A stretch of DNA of 64,000 nucleotides, taken from the NCBI GenBank assembly GCA_043745805.1, contig JAYTSD010000029.1, forward strand, positions 1 to 64,000, in the 5' to 3' direction. The notes under the pieces are model-generated. The model had not been told where the DNA came from and searched no databases. It saw only the letters and a list, made by a program, of their open reading frames with translations. Of the stretch, positions 55,444 through 64,000 are shown one piece after another. Within the stretch, counting starts at the first letter, position 1; every line of letters starts with the position of its first letter. This DNA is from Fibrobacteria bacterium. Lineage in GTDB: Bacteria; Fibrobacterota; Fibrobacteria; UBA11236. Position numbers and translations under genes: made by a program.

Positions 55444-57420
55444 TTAACCCACTAACATATTGTCATTTAAGCCGGCATCGGCAAATTTTAACAATTGAAT
55501 AATAAAGGTAGTACCAACATTTTCACGACTTTCCACCGTAATAAGGCCTTTATGGTCCTGAATAATGCCATAACTAATTGAAAGCCCTAAACCGGTACCC
55601 ATGCTTTTGGTGCTAAAAAAAGGTTCGAAAATTTTTTCCAAATTTTCAGAAGAAATTCCAATGCCAGTGTCGCTTATGCGAATTTCTACGCCGTTACCGG
55701 TTTGCTGAATACGTAAATCTAAAACGCGTTTACTTCTGTCGGTCCCTTCCATCGCATGCATCGCATTAATAAAAAGATTAATTAATACTTGTTTTAATTG
55801 GTTTTTATTGCCTAAAACCCGTGACTCCAAATTATCAAAACGTAATTGCACATCAATATGGCCAGAAATAATTTGATGGTGTAATAAAGCCACCACATCT
55901 TTAATAATTTCCGAAAGGGAAACCGGAGACATGGGGCTTTCAGTTTTACCTTGTCGAGAAAAATCCAAAAGATTTTTAACAATATCCCGTATACGCAAAA
56001 TCTCTTCGAGAATTAAATTCAATTCTCCTTTTAATTTATTGTCCTCCGTCATCATCAAGCCCATTTGGAGTCGACCTAGCATGATTTGCAAAGGATTATT
56101 TATTTCATGTGCTACACCACCCGCCAACTGTCCTAGGGCTGCCATTTTTCCAGAATGCACCAGTTGCCATTGCATATGGGTAAGATTTTGATTGGCACTT
56201 AATAAGGAATCATACAGGTTAATATTTTCAGCTACCATTTTTGCTTGTGATAAAATAGCCTGTAATAAATTTTGTAATATGGGAACTCGTTCAATATCTT
56301 CAGCAGAAAGCCCTATCCATAGGGAAAGTTTTTGCGAATCTTCCCAGGCAAGGGAGTGAATCCATAAACCCTCACATCCAAAAAAAGCTTGGGTATGCGG
56401 ATAATGGTTTTTAAGATCTTCACCCATCAGAAAAAAACTAGGCTGAGCTTCATTGATGAGTTTTTGTGTTTCATCTAGGCGTATAAAAGCTTCCGAAGAT
56501 ACCGTTACATCTAGAGTCACTACTTCGGATTTATTGACACCTTGAAAAAGAATTAATAACGGTGAAAGCTTTAATTCATTTTTTAGGACCAATAAAAATT
56601 CATGAAAAAAATTGAGGCGATGAGTTTCGCGTAATGATTTAGCTTCATCAGGCTTAAATGCATTTAGGAGTACATCTTCCTTTAATTTATTTACGGAAGT
56701 AAAAAGTTTTAATTCATTTATCTTTTCTTGCATTTGTCGACGATGTAAACAATTAAGCAAAGCTATGGATGCATGACTGGATAATACCCAAATCAAATTC
56801 ATCATTTCAGGAGTAATATTTTCTTCTTTTACTGTGCTGGCAATCCAAATAAACCCATGGGAACTTTCCTGATTGGGTAAAGGCACAATGGCAAAATCTC
56901 CGGCTTCCATTTCATCAAAACTGGGAATTAAGCAAACGCGCTTTTCTTGTAAAGCCCAATCAATAATGCCCTCCTCCCAATGCTGGTCGAATATCTTTTG
57001 CAAAGCAGGAGTAAAATGACTGGATAATAAGGGATGCCGAGAAATACTTTTTCCTTCTAATAAAAAAATGGCGCAGCCACGTGTAGGTAGTACTTCACTC
57101 AATAAAAAAAGTAAATGGTGAAGGATATCCTTTAAATCGGAAGAGGAAGAAATAACCCGACACAATTCTAATACCTTTTGTAACTCACTTAAAGAACTTT
57201 TAAACTGTTCCTTTTCCAACTTAACGGAAGAGAGCGATACATTAGTATTTTGTATTAATTGATCTTGATCCTGACGAATAATATTCCATTGCGAATAGCG
57301 CGACGAAAGCTCTCGCACTAAAGCCGCTACCTCCCCGGTTTGAATGCGCAAGGTACTGACATTACAATCCTTCGCAATGCCTAAACGTAAAGTTTCTAAG
57401 TCCGCTAATAACTTATTCAT
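55444..57420 (-). CDS. soluble GAF-domain sensor histidine kinase (NtrB-like)
   Basis: LGQLAGGVAHEINNPL, QVLINLFINA, DTGIGI, IFEPFFSTK..GTGLGL; no clear TM; start 57420 preferred over 57459. Confidence 0.88.
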   Translation of the reverse strand: MNKLLADLETLRLGIAKDCNVSTLRIQTGEVAALVRELSSRYSQWNIIRQDQDQLIQNTNVSLSSVKLEKEQFKSSLSELQKVLELCRVISSSSDLKDILHHLLFLLSEVLPTRGCAIFLLEGKSISRHPLLSSHFTPALQKIFDQHWEEGIIDWALQEKRVCLIPSFDEMEAGDFAIVPLPNQESSHGFIWIASTVKEENITPEMMNLIWVLSSHASIALLNCLHRRQMQEKINELKLFTSVNKLKEDVLLNAFKPDEAKSLRETHRLNFFHEFLLVLKNELKLSPLLILFQGVNKSEVVTLDVTVSSEAFIRLDETQKLINEAQPSFFLMGEDLKNHYPHTQAFFGCEGLWIHSLAWEDSQKLSLWIGLSAEDIERVPILQNLLQAILSQAKMVAENINLYDSLLSANQNLTHMQWQLVHSGKMAALGQLAGGVAHEINNPLQIMLGRLQMGLMMTEDNKLKGELNLILEEILRIRDIVKNLLDFSRQGKTESPMSPVSLSEIIKDVVALLHHQIISGHIDVQLRFDNLESRVLGNKNQLKQVLINLFINAMHAMEGTDRSKRVLDLRIQQTGNGVEIRISDTGIGISSENLEKIFEPFFSTKSMGTGLGLSISYGIIQDHKGLITVESRENVGTTFIIQLLKFADAGLNDNMLVG

Positions 57421-58327
57421 GCGTACCCGAAAAAATGCTATTCGCTTTAGCGTATTCATTTTCTACTTGTGGTAAATATTGCAATAAGGATTCGGGCGTT
57501 AACCCAAAAGCGCCATAGGCTAATTCATAAATAGATGCAGGAATTTCACCCATTTCTTTGCTTCCACTTTTTCCTAAATTCGCTCTATGTGCTAGAAAAT
57601 TACCAAGATAAACGAGCAAAGGTAACTCCATATGCTTGGGACAAAATTCAGGATGTTCATGAAATTTTATCGCTTCTACTAAATGCAAGGGTAAATTCCA
57701 ACGCTCCGCCAACCAAGCACCAACTTCGGCATGATCCACGCCTAAAATTTTTCGTTCAGCTTCCGCTAATGAGTGATTTTTTTCATGTACTAAACTTTGT
57801 ATTTCAGCAAATTCTTTAGCCAAATATTGATTCAAAATGATTTTGCCTAAATCATGTAATAAGCCCGCTACAAAAGCTTCTCCAGCTAAACGATAACAAG
57901 TTTCGCGCGCCAATACACGCGTTGCAGCTCCTACTGCTATTGCATGTTGCCAAAACAAACTAATATCAAAATATTTACTACTTCCATCGGCTCGAAACAA
58001 AGTCAGCACTGAAAGACTGAGTCCCATTTCTTTTACTTTTTCAAAGCCTAATACCACAATGGCTAATTTCACGGTAGAAATTTCTCTGGGAAATCCATAA
58101 AATGCAGAATTGGCCATTTTCAAAATTTTAGCAGTTAGAACTTGATCCTGCATAATCGCCGAAGACAATTGCCCCGCCGAAGTTTTAGGGTTGTCTACGA
58201 GTTCTAAAATCTTGGAGGTTACGGTAGGTAAAGTCGGCAAGGAAATTAAAGAATCTGTTATTTTTTTAACGCGTTGCGCAGATTGAACGGCATCTACCCG
58301 ATCCATTGAAATGTCCTGACGTGACAT
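57413..58327 (-). CDS. HDOD-domain protein
   Basis: LPTLP, DQVLTAKILKMANSAFYG, AGLLHDLGK, DHAEVG.WLAERWNLP. Confidence 0.92.
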   Translation of the reverse strand: MSRQDISMDRVDAVQSAQRVKKITDSLISLPTLPTVTSKILELVDNPKTSAGQLSSAIMQDQVLTAKILKMANSAFYGFPREISTVKLAIVVLGFEKVKEMGLSLSVLTLFRADGSSKYFDISLFWQHAIAVGAATRVLARETCYRLAGEAFVAGLLHDLGKIILNQYLAKEFAEIQSLVHEKNHSLAEAERKILGVDHAEVGAWLAERWNLPLHLVEAIKFHEHPEFCPKHMELPLLVYLGNFLAHRANLGKSGSKEMGEIPASIYELAYGAFGLTPESLLQYLPQVENEYAKANSIFSGTHE

Positions 58328-58346: not shown

Positions 58347-59111
58347 TTATGCGTTAATTTTTTGTACTAGCTTGCCCTTAAGCTTAAGCATAGCTTTACT
58401 ATGAATTTGGGAAACTCTCGACTCAGTTAAGTTCAAAACTTCCCCAATTTCCTTCAATGTCAATTCTTCATAATGATAAAGAGCCACCACCAAGCGTTCT
58501 TTTTCAGGTAACTGAGAAATAGTTTCCTTAAGAATTCTTTTTACTTCCTTGAAACCCAATTCCTTCAAAGGATTCACCCCTTGCGGATCTTCAATGGTAT
58601 CGATAAGCATTAGTGATTTATTTTCATCGCCTCTATCCGGCATGGCTTCTTCCAATGACAAAATAGCCGCCGGAGCCACATCGCTTAACATTTCTTCGAA
58701 CTCCTCCGAAGTAATATTTAGATGCTGCGCCACTTCATCATCATAGGGCATACGCCCTAATTCATTTTCCAATTTCGCATAGGCTTTTTGTAATACTCTT
58801 GATTTTTGCCGAACCGAACGTGGCACCCAATCTAAAGCGCGTAATTCATCGAGTATAGCTCCTCGCACTTTATGCGAAGCAAAGGTTTCAAATTTTAATC
58901 CCCGCTCAGGTTCAAAACTTTCCACCGCTTTTACTAATCCTAAAATTCCTGAACTAATTAAATCATCTAGCTCCACCGAGCTGGGGAGATTTGAAGCGAT
59001 ACGTTGTGCAATGAATTTAACCATGCCTGCATACTCAACTAGTAATTTATCTTTGCAAACTTTATTACCGGTTTCACGATATTGAGTCCACAGGTCAATC
59101 AAATCAATCAT
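58347..59111 (-). CDS. fliA: FliA/WhiG-family sigma-28 factor
   Basis: DDLIS.G..GL, RGAILDELR.LDWVPRS, LTLKEIG..L..TESRVSQIH. Confidence 0.95.
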   Translation of the reverse strand: MIDLIDLWTQYRETGNKVCKDKLLVEYAGMVKFIAQRIASNLPSSVELDDLISSGILGLVKAVESFEPERGLKFETFASHKVRGAILDELRALDWVPRSVRQKSRVLQKAYAKLENELGRMPYDDEVAQHLNITSEEFEEMLSDVAPAAILSLEEAMPDRGDENKSLMLIDTIEDPQGVNPLKELGFKEVKRILKETISQLPEKERLVVALYHYEELTLKEIGEVLNLTESRVSQIHSKAMLKLKGKLVQKINA

Positions 59112-59285
59112 GAACTTTTATCCCATGACTAAAGCCAAGATTTGATCTGGCATGGATATTAAAATAAATCTTGAGCAAGTTGTCACACACCTTTTCATTA
59201 TCTCCTTTTTTATTGACTAACACCACTATTTTCCCCATTTCAGTGATGAAATAAACCACAAAAGCAGCCTCATTTAGGGCTAGAT

Positions 59286-59615
59286 TTAGGTTTTTGCATT
59301 ATTCTTTTTGGAATTCTCTTTGGATTCAGGAATTTCATTTTCGCTAGGTTCAATGAAATGATAAAGAAATCCCCCTTCTTCACGTGTGGCTTTAGATTCT
59401 AAAGCCGAAGCAACGATAGACTTTACTAAAGTGTCGCTTAAAATGATGAAAAAAATCCAGCCAAGGGCTGAAGCAATGCAGCCTTTAACTAAAGCCACTA
59501 ATAGGGATTCGAAATTCCATGTTTCGGAAAACAAAATCGACATAAAAAACACTAAGAAAAAAAGTAATAGTAATACTACTTTAGTAATTGATTTGCTGAT
59601 TTTTTGAGTTTGCAT
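59286..59615 (-). CDS. two-TM membrane hypothetical protein in the flagellar operon
   Basis: 109 aa; two hydrophobic helices and a charged tail; between flhF and fliA. Confidence 0.7.
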   Translation of the reverse strand: MQTQKISKSITKVVLLLLFFLVFFMSILFSETWNFESLLVALVKGCIASALGWIFFIILSDTLVKSIVASALESKATREEGGFLYHFIEPSENEIPESKENSKKNNAKT

Positions 59616-59631
59616 ACAACTTACTTCACTC

Positions 59632-61005
59632 TCAATTTATGGTGGAGGTTGCCCATTGTGTAGCGACCATATTTTCCATAAATAACACCGAGGAAAATGT
59701 TTCAGGCTCGGCCTTTTTTAAATGCGCCGAAAGATCTTGGCCATTGCAAACATAAGAGACCGGGATTTTTGAATGCACGGTAAGATTATATAAGTTACCT
59801 AAACTGATACATTCATCCAGTTTAGTAAAAATCAAACGCGAAGTTCCTAAAGGTCTAAAGTCTTCAATGGTTCGAGCTAATTCCTTTCCACGAGTATGCG
59901 CGCAAAGCGTGAGATGAATTTCATGCGGCTGAGTTTTTTGAATCAAATTTTGTAAATCTTGCAAAAGATCTTTATGTGCAGGACCACGTCCCCCGGTATC
60001 AATAAGAATGTATTCACAATCTTTTAATTTTCTCAAGCCTTGTATAATATCTTCATCATTAAATAAGGTTAACATCGGTATCCCTGCGGAATGGGCAAAA
60101 ACTTTTAACTGTTCTGCCGCACCCATGCGATAAGCATCCGCTGATAAAATTCCAACTTTTTTTCCTTTTTCAAAACGCAACTGCACTGCGAGCTTAATTA
60201 AAGTGGTCGTTTTACCTACACCCGTAGGCCCCACTAACATTATTTTATATGGCGTTTTTAAATTGTGCTTGGATAAATTCGACGCCCCATTTAATGCCGT
60301 TCCATCCTGAGCACCTGTATAGGCATTTAAAGGCAATACGGGAATTTGTTGCGCCATAAATTTAATTAAAAGCTCGTGACATTTTTCCAAATTCTTTCCC
60401 TGCCAAGGAGGTAACACAGAAGCTAACTTGTCAATTAATGCGAGGGCTAAATCTTTATCAATATCCATTTCCAACAAACTATCCAATACCGTTTGAAAAG
60501 CACCGAGTGACTCTGGCGCAATGACGGAAGCGCTTTCACGAGCAGGGCGTAATAAATCCACTGCAGTAACCATGTTTTTAATCTCATCGCGCAACATTTT
60601 TAGTTCTCGTGTAGGTAACTCCACACTTTGTCGAACTTCTTTAAATTCAGTTTTCATAGTCTCTAACCATTTTGCCATTTCTGTATCTGGCTTCACGTTA
60701 TTGGCCTTGGTATTTAAAATCGGTTCGATTTTTTTATCCATAGGTTGTCCATTACTGTCGAAGCGACGAAGGCTTCCTCTCCAATCATAAGTGCTAGGAG
60801 GTGTTTGCGGTTTTTCGGGCATTGGTGGCTTCGCATAGAGTGACTCTTCTAAACCTGCAGTAACCTCTATCATCTCCCAAATTTTGCCTAAATTTTTCTT
60901 TTGCACTTTTTTCGATTTTAAAATAATCGCTTCGGGACCTAATTCTTCCTTAATGCGCTGCAGCACTTCCTGCATGGTGTCAGCCTGATATGTTTTCATT
61001 TTCAT
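59632..61005 (-). CDS. flhF: flagellar SRP-family GTPase
   Basis: KEELGPEAIIL N-terminus; GPTGVGKTTT, DAYR.GA.EQL, DTGGR, TKLDE. Confidence 0.93.
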   Translation of the reverse strand: MKMKTYQADTMQEVLQRIKEELGPEAIILKSKKVQKKNLGKIWEMIEVTAGLEESLYAKPPMPEKPQTPPSTYDWRGSLRRFDSNGQPMDKKIEPILNTKANNVKPDTEMAKWLETMKTEFKEVRQSVELPTRELKMLRDEIKNMVTAVDLLRPARESASVIAPESLGAFQTVLDSLLEMDIDKDLALALIDKLASVLPPWQGKNLEKCHELLIKFMAQQIPVLPLNAYTGAQDGTALNGASNLSKHNLKTPYKIMLVGPTGVGKTTTLIKLAVQLRFEKGKKVGILSADAYRMGAAEQLKVFAHSAGIPMLTLFNDEDIIQGLRKLKDCEYILIDTGGRGPAHKDLLQDLQNLIQKTQPHEIHLTLCAHTRGKELARTIEDFRPLGTSRLIFTKLDECISLGNLYNLTVHSKIPVSYVCNGQDLSAHLKKAEPETFSSVLFMENMVATQWATSTIN

Positions 61006-63082
61006 AAATCACTACCGTTCCTATTGCTTTTACATTGATTCCTGATACAATTTCACTATATGAGATAATCGCTAAATTTGGGAAAGATCCCTCTAAAATT
61101 CTTCTCAATTGAAAACGAATTCCTGGCGAACAAATCAAAACCGGAGGTTGATTATTCGCTACCATTTTCTCCACAATGGGCGCTAAACGTCCCACCATTT
61201 TGCCTACCATTTCAGGTCGAATCACTAAACGAGGTCCCCTATCTGTATTTTGCAAGGACGCTTCTAAAGTCTGTTCTAACTTGGGTTCAAGGCTTATCAC
61301 TTGAATTTGTCCTGTACTATCTTTATACATTTTACAAATTTGGCGAGCTAATCCTTGACGACATTGTTCCGTTAAATAGGATTCCGATTTATTAATTTTT
61401 GCCCCATTAGACATGGCTTCTAATAAGGATCCTAAATCGCGAATGGAAACTTTTTCGCCCAATAAATTAAAGAGTACTTTTTGTACTTCTCCAATATTGA
61501 GTAATCCCGGAATCAATTCCTCCACCACCGCAGAATTTACTGACTTCACATTATCGACCAGTGCTTTCACATCTTGGCGAGTTAAAATTTCACCGGCATG
61601 GGTGCGAATGACTTCAGTTAAATGTGTGGCTATTACCGCTGGCAATTCCACAACTGTGTAACCTGCAATATCTGCCGCTTCTTTTTGACTCGGTGTAATC
61701 CATAGTGCAGGTAACCCAAATGCAGGCTCCAACGTAGGTATAGCGGCAATCTTTTGGCTGGTTCCCCCAGGGTCCATAGCTAAAAAGCAACCTGGCATTA
61801 ATTCCCCATGCCCAACATCCACACTTTTAATTTTTATCACATATTGATTGGCTCTTAATTGAATATTATCGCGAATGCGAATAGGCGGTACTATGATTCC
61901 AATTTCCGTAGCACATTGTCGACGTAACATGGTAATACGTTCTAATAAATCACCACCTTGATTAATATCCACTAAGGAAATTAAACCATAACCGATTTCC
62001 AATTCCATTTGATCCACTTGCAAATAGGATTCAATTTTATCAGTATCTTGATTTTCATCTTTTTCAACTTTTTGTTTCGCTTGTTTACTCTCTTCTAAAA
62101 CCTTGTTTGCTTTTTGACGCTTAGACATTAAACCAAGTCCACCCACTGCCGCCGACAAGAGAATAAAAGGTAAAGTTGGCATGCCCGGAATAAGTCCTAG
62201 GAAGCCCAAGAAACCGGCTGCGGTATAAAGTGATTTTACACTTTGTCCTAATTGCCCAATCACTTCATTGCCTAAATTTTGTTTGGATGCCGCACGCGCC
62301 ACAATAATACCCGATGCGGTGGAAATCATCAGTGCCGGCATTTGGGTAACCAATCCGTCACCGATGGTTAATTGAGTATAATTCACTAAAGCTTGTTTAA
62401 AACTCATATCCTTCATGGTCATGCCGACAATAAAACCACCCACTACATTCACTACGGTAATTACAATACTCGCTACTGCATCACCGCGCACAAATTTACT
62501 CGCACCATCCATGGCGCCATAAAAATCAGCTTCTCTACCGATATTCTTACGGCGCTCTTTGGCTTCGGATTCAGTAATAATTCCGGCATTGAGATCGGAA
62601 TCCACCGCCATTTGTTTACCTGGCATGGCATCCAACGTAAAGCGTGCTGCCACTTCAGCAATTCGACCCGCACCTTTGGTAATCACTACAAATTGAATAA
62701 TCACGAGAATAATAAATATGATAGTTCCGACTACCATATTACCGCTGGTTACAAAAGTACCGAAGGCGTGAATCACCGCGCCGGCTTCCCCATCCGCTAG
62801 GATTAAACGGGTCGTGGCAATATTTAAACCAATGCGAAATAAAGTGAGTATGAGTAATAATCCAGGGAATACCGATAAATCCAAAACATTTTCAATATAA
62901 AGTGAGATCAACATAATGAGTACTGCAATGGCAATCATCACCGTGAGTAAAATATCGAGTAAAATTGTAGGTAAGGGAATAATCATCATGCACATAATGC
63001 CGATAAGCAAAAGTGCTATAAGCAAATCTTTTTGATGCAGGAATTGTGTTTTAAAAGTTAAAGTACCACCTTTAGTATTCAC
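60980..63082 (-). CDS. flhA: flagellar export gate protein
   Basis: RIAEVAARFTLDAMPGKQMA.D.DL, FYGAMDGASKFVRGDA, IRIRDN. Confidence 0.97.
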   Translation of the reverse strand: MNTKGGTLTFKTQFLHQKDLLIALLLIGIMCMMIIPLPTILLDILLTVMIAIAVLIMLISLYIENVLDLSVFPGLLLILTLFRIGLNIATTRLILADGEAGAVIHAFGTFVTSGNMVVGTIIFIILVIIQFVVITKGAGRIAEVAARFTLDAMPGKQMAVDSDLNAGIITESEAKERRKNIGREADFYGAMDGASKFVRGDAVASIVITVVNVVGGFIVGMTMKDMSFKQALVNYTQLTIGDGLVTQMPALMISTASGIIVARAASKQNLGNEVIGQLGQSVKSLYTAAGFLGFLGLIPGMPTLPFILLSAAVGGLGLMSKRQKANKVLEESKQAKQKVEKDENQDTDKIESYLQVDQMELEIGYGLISLVDINQGGDLLERITMLRRQCATEIGIIVPPIRIRDNIQLRANQYVIKIKSVDVGHGELMPGCFLAMDPGGTSQKIAAIPTLEPAFGLPALWITPSQKEAADIAGYTVVELPAVIATHLTEVIRTHAGEILTRQDVKALVDNVKSVNSAVVEELIPGLLNIGEVQKVLFNLLGEKVSIRDLGSLLEAMSNGAKINKSESYLTEQCRQGLARQICKMYKDSTGQIQVISLEPKLEQTLEASLQNTDRGPRLVIRPEMVGKMVGRLAPIVEKMVANNQPPVLICSPGIRFQLRRILEGSFPNLAIISYSEIVSGINVKAIGTVVIYENENISG

Positions 63083-63103
63083 GAAATTAATTTGCCCTTA
63101 CGC

Positions 63104-63130
63104 TAAAGTTTTCCAAAAATCTTCCGATAA
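63104..63130 (+). promoter_or_regulatory. sigma28 (FliA)-type promoter oriented antisense to flhB/flhA
   Basis: TAAAGTTT-N11-TCCGATAA vs consensus TAAAGTTT-N11-GCCGATAA (15/16). Confidence 0.7.
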
Positions 63131-63161
63131 ATAGAAGGGAAGATTTCAACTTATGCAATAC

Positions 63162-63178
63162 AGCAAATCACGGGCCTG
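63162..63178 (-). promoter_or_regulatory. sigma54-type -24/-12 promoter pointing into flhA
   Basis: Minus strand CAGGCCCGTGATTTGCT; GG-N10-GC; 2 mismatches to YTGGCACG-N4-TTGCW. Confidence 0.55.
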
Positions 63179-63223
63179 CTGTAAAGTTATGGCAACAGTT
63201 CAATTTTTAGCTTAAATGTGAAC

Positions 63224-64000
63224 TTATTTTTGGTTTTTAAGGCCATAGACATAGGCCAAAATTTCCGCCATTGCGGCAAAGAATTCCGCAGGAATGTCCT
63301 CACCTACTTCGGCAAAATCATACAGGCTTCGTGCTAAAGGCTTATCTTCTACAATCGGAATATCATTCTCACGCGCGACATTACGAATACGTTCCGCAAT
63401 TAAACGCTTTCCCTTAGCAAGCACTCTGGGAGCAGTGTCCACACCTTGTTCATAACGAATGGCTAAAGCAATAAATGTAGGATTAGTAATAATTACGGTG
63501 GCGCGCGGTACTTCTTTCATCATCATGTTTTTAAACATCTGTTGGCGCAAAGCACGGATTTTTCCCTTTATCGCGGGATCGCCGTCGGAAGAACGCGCCT
63601 CGTCTTTAACTTCTTGTTTAGACATACGCAAGTCTTTCATAAACTTCTTTTTTAAATAAATAATATCCGCTATACCTATCACTAATAAAGTTAAAGTGGA
63701 TTTCCAGATAATTTCATAACTCACATCGAATAACATTTTAATGATTTGCGATAAACTTTGATCCGCTAAAATTAAGTATTCATGAAAATGACTCATCATT
63801 ACGGAATAAGCCACAAAGCCTACCACAAACATTTTTAAAACACTTTTTAATAATTCCACTAAGGTTTGCGGAGAAAACATTTTTTTTAAACCACTAAATC
63901 CAAAGATCCTTCCAAAATGTGGCCCTAAAGATTCCAAGCTCCACATGAATCCTACTTGGGCAAAATTGGAAATCATTCCCACTATCAGTAAAGTGCCCAC
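63224..64000 (-). CDS. flhB: flagellar export switch protein (5' part outside the window)
   Basis: LRMSKQEVKDE...DGDP.IK, TNPT, APRVLAKG, PLARSLY, AEILAYVY. Confidence 0.95.
   Translation of the reverse strand: MGTLLIVGMISNFAQVGFMWSLESLGPHFGRIFGFSGLKKMFSPQTLVELLKSVLKMFVVGFVAYSVMMSHFHEYLILADQSLSQIIKMLFDVSYEIIWKSTLTLLVIGIADIIYLKKKFMKDLRMSKQEVKDEARSSDGDPAIKGKIRALRQQMFKNMMMKEVPRATVIITNPTFIALAIRYEQGVDTAPRVLAKGKRLIAERIRNVARENDIPIVEDKPLARSLYDFAEVGEDIPAEFFAAMAEILAYVYGLKNQK

Follow-up and report, generated by a model that had tools for sequence, protein, structure and literature searches.

The spacer between the flagellar export genes flhB and flhA of an uncultured Fibrobacterota bacterium carries two promoter motifs that face each other, a sigma-54 motif reading into flhA and, on the opposite strand, a sigma-28 (FliA) motif reading back toward flhB. 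Both motifs are kept in every genome of the family in which this spacer is assembled, and judging from this conservation the two promoters are very probably real and functionally linked. For their joint function, we give an even chance to the reading that FliA-driven antisense transcription interferes with sigma-54-dependent and read-through transcription of flhA-flhF-fliA, which would constitute a negative feedback.

Locus and gene order

The window, that is, the whole stretch of 64,000 nt that was analysed, is C29:1-64000 of a genome of 3.95 Mb in 50 contigs with 40% GC. The sequencing runs found to contain the stretch are four DNA runs of one sediment study (sediment metagenomes), with no RNA run among those listed. 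According to Pfam matches and ORF lists, the minus strand carries in order fliK-flgD-flgE-flbD-fliL-fliM-fliN/Y-fliO-fliP-fliQ-fliR-flhB and then a 141-bp spacer, followed by flhA, flhF, a 109-aa ORF, a 174-bp gap, fliA, an HDOD protein and a GAF histidine kinase. The hook-basal-body and export operon ends with flhB, and within the 16-gene run only the 174-bp gap ahead of fliA is larger than the spacer. The genes and the spacer are located as follows.

63224 to beyond 64000, minus strand: 3' part of flhB (Pfam), last gene of the 12-gene fliK-flhB run
63083-63223: flhB-flhA spacer, 141 bp, interrupting the tightly packed 16-gene run on the minus strand (ORF lists)
60980-63082, minus strand: flhA (FHIPEP; Pfam), first gene past the sigma-54 promoter motif
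59632-61005, minus strand: flhF, overlapping the end of flhA (Pfam; TIGR03499, 179.8 bits, cut-off 174.15)
59286-59615, minus strand: 109-aa ORF, without a match in Pfam or NCBIfam and with two stretches that look hydrophobic by eye
58347-59111, minus strand: fliA (sigma-28), 174 bp downstream of the 109-aa ORF (Pfam, synteny)

The product of fliA matches the FliA/WhiG model TIGR02479 at 269.6 bits (cut-off 189.6), and in the 15 genomes with both genes on one contig these share a strand, with fliA 1.75-2.4 kb downstream of flhA. An earlier note, made from the letters of the window and a list of their open reading frames, had placed fliA downstream in the same run, and these matches bear it out. 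The gene rpoN, on which the sigma-54 half of that note's proposal depends, is encoded at C8:351468-351941. In addition, the genome holds 15 strong Sigma54_activat matches, which represent enhancer-binding proteins, and encodes FlgM (PF04316, 36.5 bits, cut-off 25).

In many other bacteria, flhG/fleN takes the position at which the 109-aa ORF sits here. At this locus, flhG/fleN was not found in the 520 bp between flhF and fliA (59112-59631). Since the flhA-fliA distance is similar in relatives, flhG/fleN is probably absent from the flhF-fliA interval throughout the family.

Directly downstream of fliA, at 55444-58327 on the minus strand, lie the genes of an HDOD-domain protein and a GAF-HisKA-HATPase histidine kinase, which overlap each other by 47 bp. 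The two may belong to the same transcription unit as fliA and have a role in motility signalling.

Two promoter motifs in the spacer

The two motifs and the gap between them are listed below. FliA promoters consist of a TAAAGTTT-like -35 element and a GCCGATAA-like -10 element with 11-12 bp between them, and start positions were predicted from the textbook spacing rules for sigma-28 and sigma-54; both starts are rule-of-thumb predictions.

63104-63130, plus strand: sigma-28 (FliA) promoter motif, antisense to the flagellar genes, predicted start ~63137
63131-63161: gap between the promoters, 31 bp, containing both predicted starts; predicted 5' ends overlap by ~15 nt
63162-63177, minus strand: sigma-54 promoter motif for flhA, AGGCCCGTGATTTGCT, predicted start ~63151

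The sigma-28 motif is made up of the -35 element TAAAGTTT (63104-63111), an 11-nt spacer and the -10 element TCCGATAA (63123-63130), and it agrees with the E. coli FliA consensus at 15 of 16 positions. The sigma-54 motif lies ~80 bp upstream of the flhA start and reads into flhA, with its GG at 63176-63175 and its GC at 63164-63163 in GG-N10-GC spacing. The sequence thus agrees with the earlier note on the 15/16 match and on its direction against the operon, and the distance of about 30 bp between the motifs given there measures 31 bp. For the sigma-54 motif the note was right about presence, strand and direction, but the coordinates are 63177-63162 and not 63162-63178.

By itself, the sigma-28 motif exceeds chance. 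A consensus scan of the window returned three matches at up to three mismatches (1.66 expected), of which the spacer motif is the sole one-mismatch match, and the whole 3.95-Mb genome has five sites with at most one mismatch, including the spacer site and one flagellin promoter. The flagellin genes of the family carry the same kind of motif. Sigma-28-like motifs with at most three mismatches stand 36-87 bp upstream of 11 of the 27 flagellin-family genes in five genomes, among them the CCGATGA -10 element and the 12-bp spacer variants that are typical of the relatives' flhB-flhA spacers; for the remaining 16 genes the best match has no fewer than four mismatches. We also built a weight matrix from the spacer motifs of 15 relatives, with the window's own site excluded. 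In this genome the matrix ranks a flagellin promoter first, a site at C4:45132 second, another flagellin promoter third and the spacer site fourth. A scan for consensus promoters and terminators gave no terminators and only one sigma-70-like site.

The second-ranking site (C4:45132-45158 on the plus strand of this genome, G000; 25.5 bits) is close to the beginning of a 250-aa ORF that matches no Pfam family. Weaker matches to the sigma-28 matrix are found upstream of a type VI VipA gene (C22:11814) and of a secretin gene (C12:21477).

The sigma-54 motif alone is not above chance against the generic consensus. The window has 93 matches at up to three mismatches against 76.9 expected, and the spacer motif is one of 11 two-mismatch sites, none being better. 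It is credible because it is conserved and suitably positioned. With a matrix built from the other sites, the window's site scores 16.8 bits, a value that six sites in the genome reach, itself included. No further site of this matrix was found in the 30-kb flagellar region (C29:50000-80834), and the strongest matches elsewhere stand before the genes of an ATP-grasp protein and an MFS transporter, neither of them flagellar, so the matrix lends no independent support to a flagellar sigma-54 regulon.

Conservation across the family

The family sample (f1) comprises 32 genomes, 19 of them with FlhA; contig breaks fall inside flhA in two of the 19. The remaining 17 genomes with an assembled spacer represent six genera: g1 (this genome), g2, g3 (11 genomes), g4, g5 (two genomes) and g6. 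All 17 have both motifs, the sigma-28 motif always antisense and the sigma-54 motif always on the gene strand, and the pair that the earlier note had described in one genome therefore holds, in presence and strand, for the family. In the relatives the sigma-28 motif has one to three mismatches and a 12-bp spacer, while the sigma-54 motif is kept throughout as xGGCCCg-N4-TTTGCT.

This conservation stands against a strongly diverged background. FlhA is 71-80% identical across the family, the GC content of the spacers ranges from 33 to 67%, their lengths vary widely, and between genera they are hard to align, with nothing shared outside the promoter cores. Dinucleotide shuffles of each spacer equalled the observed sigma-28 match in only 0-10 of 2000 trials; this test took 13 of the 16 spacers then known (all except L031, L032 and L034). 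In an alignment of the flhA leader from the sigma-54 motif to flhA (13 loci), the sole invariant columns spell ATCGG and AACTT, which complement the sigma-28 -10 and -35 cores and enclose an unconstrained stretch. Fixed cores with a free spacer are the signature of a promoter and not that of an RNA fold or a single binding site. Since the genomes share descent, the argument is one of conservation against a diverged background and not of 17 independent events. On this basis, the conservation of the motifs in diverged spacers makes both promoters very probably real. The g3 row L009 (genome G021) has the same spacer as the public record L036, and no conclusion rests on G021. A sense-strand sigma-28 promoter for flhA was also considered and rejected, the best sense matches having 5-8 mismatches.

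In the neighbouring family f2 (three loci), a canonical TGGCAYA-N4-TTGCT motif is found upstream of flhA and the antisense sigma-28 motif is absent. The sigma-54 promoter at flhA is thus the older element, and the sigma-28 promoter is specific to the family f1. Neither the sigma-54 motif nor the antisense sigma-28 motif was found at flhA in families f3 and f4. At the f2 loci (L018, L020 and L021), flhA is detached from flhB and follows a non-flagellar gene, with the near-consensus sigma-54 motif ~50 bp upstream of the flhA start.

Two further observations were made in the family sample. In genus g4, 11 of 12 genomes (2.0-2.7 Mb) show no FlhA or FliA matches, and the single 3.8-Mb genome has FlhA, FliA and the promoter pair, which suggests that flagella were lost within this genus. 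Besides, the loci L027, L028 and L029 (genomes G017 and G009) hold a second FlhB/FlhA pair, ~35% identical over the full length to the flagellar FlhA, with ~1 kb and two small ORFs between its genes, so that some g3 genomes seem to have a further type III export system.

Geometry of the promoter pair

By motif geometry, the promoters are face to face in 15 of the 17 genomes. In 14 of these 15 the sigma-54 16-mer ends 25-32 bp from the edge of the sigma-28 -10 element, and in the other 50 bp from it; the predicted 5' ends overlap by 9-16 nt, and by 34 nt in the outlier. In 13 of 14 loci, 52-69 nt separate the sigma-28 -35 element from FlhA residue 17. By comparison, the stretch between the flhB stop and the sigma-54 motif is variable, at 25 to 160 bp.

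The two genomes of genus g5, which are closely related, have the promoters back to back, with the sigma-28 motif upstream of the sigma-54 motif and firing away from it. In a quick FlhA tree, g5 is sister to g1, g2, g4 and three g3 rows (support 98); only this placement was used, and seven misplaced rows, which are spurious longer ORFs from GC-rich loci, were ignored. The earlier note had proposed that each polymerase would cross the promoter of the other. The predicted geometry agrees with this in 15 of the 17 genomes but not in g5, so head-on interference at the sigma-54 promoter cannot be a function shared by the whole family. What all 17 have in common is predicted sigma-28 transcription that passes over the DNA upstream of the sigma-54 promoter and enters the 3' end of flhB.

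Possible products of the antisense promoter

This shared direction is also what would be expected if the sigma-28 promoter serves to make a cis-antisense RNA against the flhB 3' end and the flhB-flhA junction, the position of the sigma-54 promoter being secondary. Such an RNA would pair with long fliK-flhB or read-through transcripts and alter their stability or translation. The back-to-back genus g5 fits as well as the others, the densely packed 12-gene run that flhB closes is read toward the spacer, and the long SigB-dependent mogR leader of Listeria, which runs over flagellar export genes according to the available text of PMC7154746, offers a precedent. However, a pure antisense RNA has no need of the sigma-54/sigma-28 distance that is constrained in 14 of the 15 face-to-face genomes. 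Moreover, no structure supported by covariation was found in the 11 alignable loci (genera g3 and g6), where the predicted fold of the antisense RNA has 26 pairs with a single compensatory one and a covariation term of -0.04 kcal/mol. We regard this explanation as unlikely, although it deserves to be kept in mind.

The same fold speaks against a discrete, sigma-28-dependent small RNA of ~65-105 nt that would be encoded in the spacer and act in trans. In its favour is a run of T residues at a similar distance from the promoter in several genera, which in the window is the following feature.

63203-63207, plus strand: T-run, an A-tract on the sense strand, ~27-31 bp upstream of the sigma-54 -24 element

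The window's T-run is at about +73 from the sigma-28 -10 element, and T-runs recur at +68 to +74 in 8 of the 12 face-to-face loci of g1, g3 and g6; in the window a second hairpin with a T-run follows at +93, at the flhB stop. Sigma-28-dependent small RNAs are described for E. coli and Campylobacter in the text available from PMC11187230 and PMC10578931. Against this, the hairpins ahead of the T-runs do not exceed shuffled sequences in stability (z from -1.2 to +1.4), a search for T-runs found none in g2, g4 and one g5 locus, an Rfam search of 13 loci was negative at E up to 1, and the genera share no sequence outside the promoter cores. A terminator after the sigma-28 promoter is thus not supported, since the T-runs recur but their hairpins match shuffles; the 63203-63207 tract could be a terminator tract or a DNA-bending A-tract. 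A trans-acting small RNA appears to us improbable on this evidence. A small protein gene was rejected, as the 20-aa ORF of the window has no counterpart elsewhere, and no conserved ORF was found downstream of the sigma-28 promoter, where frame, length and sequence differ across 16 loci.

The conserved letters might instead function on the sense strand, where they would form an RNA element or bind a protein in the 5' leader of flhA and look like a sigma-28 promoter only in the reverse reading. The motif does fill most of the predicted leader of ~69 nt, its distance from FlhA residue 17 is limited as given above, and a 10-bp stem overlaps it in the window. Yet the window fold that contains this stem is unremarkable (z -0.53; the other single-sequence fold, +0.21), the consensus structure of the sense flhA leader has no predicted pairs, and invariance is confined to the two promoter cores, which keep a fixed distance across a free spacer. 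In g5, furthermore, the motif is upstream of the sigma-54 promoter and so outside the leader, and it equals the flagellin promoters of the same genomes. We consider a sense-strand role very unlikely. Finally, a fortuitous or pervasive promoter with no function is the least credible explanation: non-functional FliA promoters are common in E. coli according to the available text of 10.1101/188474, but that work used lack of conservation as a criterion against function, and the site described here is kept in 17 of 17 genomes and six genera while spacer sequence, length and GC content diverge.

Conserved elements next to the promoters

Upstream of the sigma-54 motif, the end of flhB contains an element with constrained synonymous sites.

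63254-63286, minus strand: 33-nt element in the flhB 3' end, GAATTCTTTGCCGCnGTnGCGGAAATTTTGGCC

It comprises an imperfect dyad, TTTGCCGC-N4-GCGGAAA, followed by TTTTGG, and is predicted as an invariant hairpin. Across 15 loci, the codons are strongly biased (GAA in 13 of 14 and 14 of 15, TTT in 14 of 15, ATT in 13 of 15, TTG in 12 of 15), unlike the rest of flhB, where codons are mixed or GC-rich. The outgroup locus L017 retains the dyad through a paired change. This element could be an activator site, a 3' stem of the mRNA or part of the antisense RNA.

In g3 and g6 (L003-L009, L012, L031, L032 and L034), the interval that separates the flhB stop from the sigma-54 motif contains a conserved block of ~35 nt, CCAAAACAAaCCGGTTTAAGGATtGCGcGAAGCTT on the gene strand, with two short palindromes. 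The block is located ~60-90 bp upstream of the sigma-54 motif, and only a faint trace of it can be discerned in the window. Its role could be to bind an activator or to bend the DNA, or it could again be part of the antisense RNA. As candidate activator sites, neither the flhB dyad nor the ~35-nt block recurs elsewhere in the genome; the dyad is unique there and was rejected as a repeated binding site.

A possible feedback by transcriptional interference

We return to the reading to which we gave an even chance, namely interference by FliA-driven antisense transcription. In this arrangement, the sigma-54 promoter on the gene strand would drive flhA, flhF and the 109-aa ORF, and probably fliA, and the sigma-28 promoter lies on the opposite strand ~30 bp past the sigma-54 -12 element. 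Sigma-28 polymerase would start ~9-16 bp downstream of the sigma-54 start and transcribe back over the sigma-54 promoter and the presumed activator region into the 3' end of flhB. The release of FliA from FlgM would then turn on antisense transcription and lower sigma-54-dependent as well as read-through transcription of flhA-flhF-fliA, in that the two promoters compete and the sigma-54 closed complex is dislodged while it waits, which amounts to transcriptional interference. As a by-product, RNA antisense to the last part of the fliK-flhB operon would be made. The late stage would thereby exert negative feedback on the middle stage, with the export gate, flagellum placement and sigma-28 itself as its targets.

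Since the predicted starts are so close together, the two polymerases could not hold their promoters in open form at the same time. According to the available text of PMC5001618, convergent promoters at short range favour 'sitting duck' interference, and a sigma-28 polymerase that runs into a waiting sigma-54 closed complex would be such a case. From the sequence it is plausible that both promoters fire, that they start at the predicted positions and that one interferes with the other. Given the 174-bp gap ahead of fliA, this gene may have its own promoter, which would weaken the part of the proposal that concerns autoregulation.

A more specific version, which we hold only tentatively and think somewhat doubtful, is that late sigma-28 shuts the sigma-54 promoter of its own operon head-on, into the closed complex and the enhancer region, and needs no dedicated repressor for this. 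It would combine negative autoregulation with a late-to-middle shut-off in a lineage that lacks flhG/fleN between flhF and fliA.

Comparison with known systems

A sigma-54-dependent PflhA at the head of flhA-flhF-fleN-fliA is well known in Pseudomonas. For P. putida, the available text of 10.1101/2021.08.29.457346 describes PflhA as sigma-54- and FleQ-dependent, with transcripts that span fourteen coding regions. The Fibrobacterota locus resembles PflhA of Pseudomonas and Vibrio (sigma-54/FleQ) in that a sigma-54 promoter before flhA heads an operon with flhF and fliA. It differs in the opposing sigma-28 promoter, in having no flhG/fleN between flhF and fliA, and in belonging to another phylum.

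Intragenic and antisense FliA promoters are reported for E. coli and Salmonella, for example one that yields an RNA inside hypD (PMC4183435; Fitzgerald et al.). Non-canonical FliA promoters are frequent in E. coli, but in the available text of 10.1101/188474 and PMC4183435 most of them lack conservation and are regarded as unlikely to be of importance. The site described here shares with them its non-canonical, antisense position; unlike them, it is intergenic, conserved family-wide and faces the promoter of an operon that contains fliA.

In geometry, the pair is comparable to phage 186 pR/pL and lambda PR/PRE, which are also face to face within a few tens of bp and for which, going by the part of PMC5001618 available, sitting-duck interference, occlusion and collision would be the applicable mechanisms. 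In contrast to the phage pairs, two alternative sigma factors from successive tiers of one cascade are involved here, and the sensitive promoter would be a sigma-54 closed complex.

The long 5' UTR of Listeria monocytogenes mogR (an excludon) is SigB-dependent, extends antisense into flagellar export genes and lowers motility (PMC7154746, as far as its text was available). Like this RNA, the predicted Fibrobacterota transcript depends on an alternative sigma factor and is antisense to export-apparatus genes; the Listeria transcript encodes the repressor MogR, whereas here the sigma factor is the late flagellar one and no conserved ORF follows. Other FliA-dependent RNAs, CJnc170/FlmR of C. jejuni and UTR-derived sRNAs of E. 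coli, feed back on flagellar synthesis according to the available text of PMC11187230 and PMC10578931. Those are defined RNAs that base-pair in trans, unlike the present case, which shows no conserved RNA sequence or structure and no supported terminator.

Among the parts of the literature available, no description of opposed sigma-28 and sigma-54 promoters at flhA was found, and supplementary start-site tables could hold cases. Judged by titles and the openings of abstracts, no studies of flagellar regulation in Fibrobacterota were found either.

Significance

Flagellar hierarchies are the textbook case of ordered gene expression. To our knowledge, the shut-off of earlier flagellar stages by a late one has been worked out for only a handful of model species, in which proteins bring it about. 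If the interference reading is true, the spacer would be a minimal feedback device made of DNA only, and well suited for testing how interference acts on a sigma-54 closed complex. The conservation of the sigma-28 site indicates that a non-canonical FliA promoter can be under long-term selection, unlike the mostly non-conserved ones of enterobacteria. The promoter pair also gives a first handle on flagellar regulation in Fibrobacterota.
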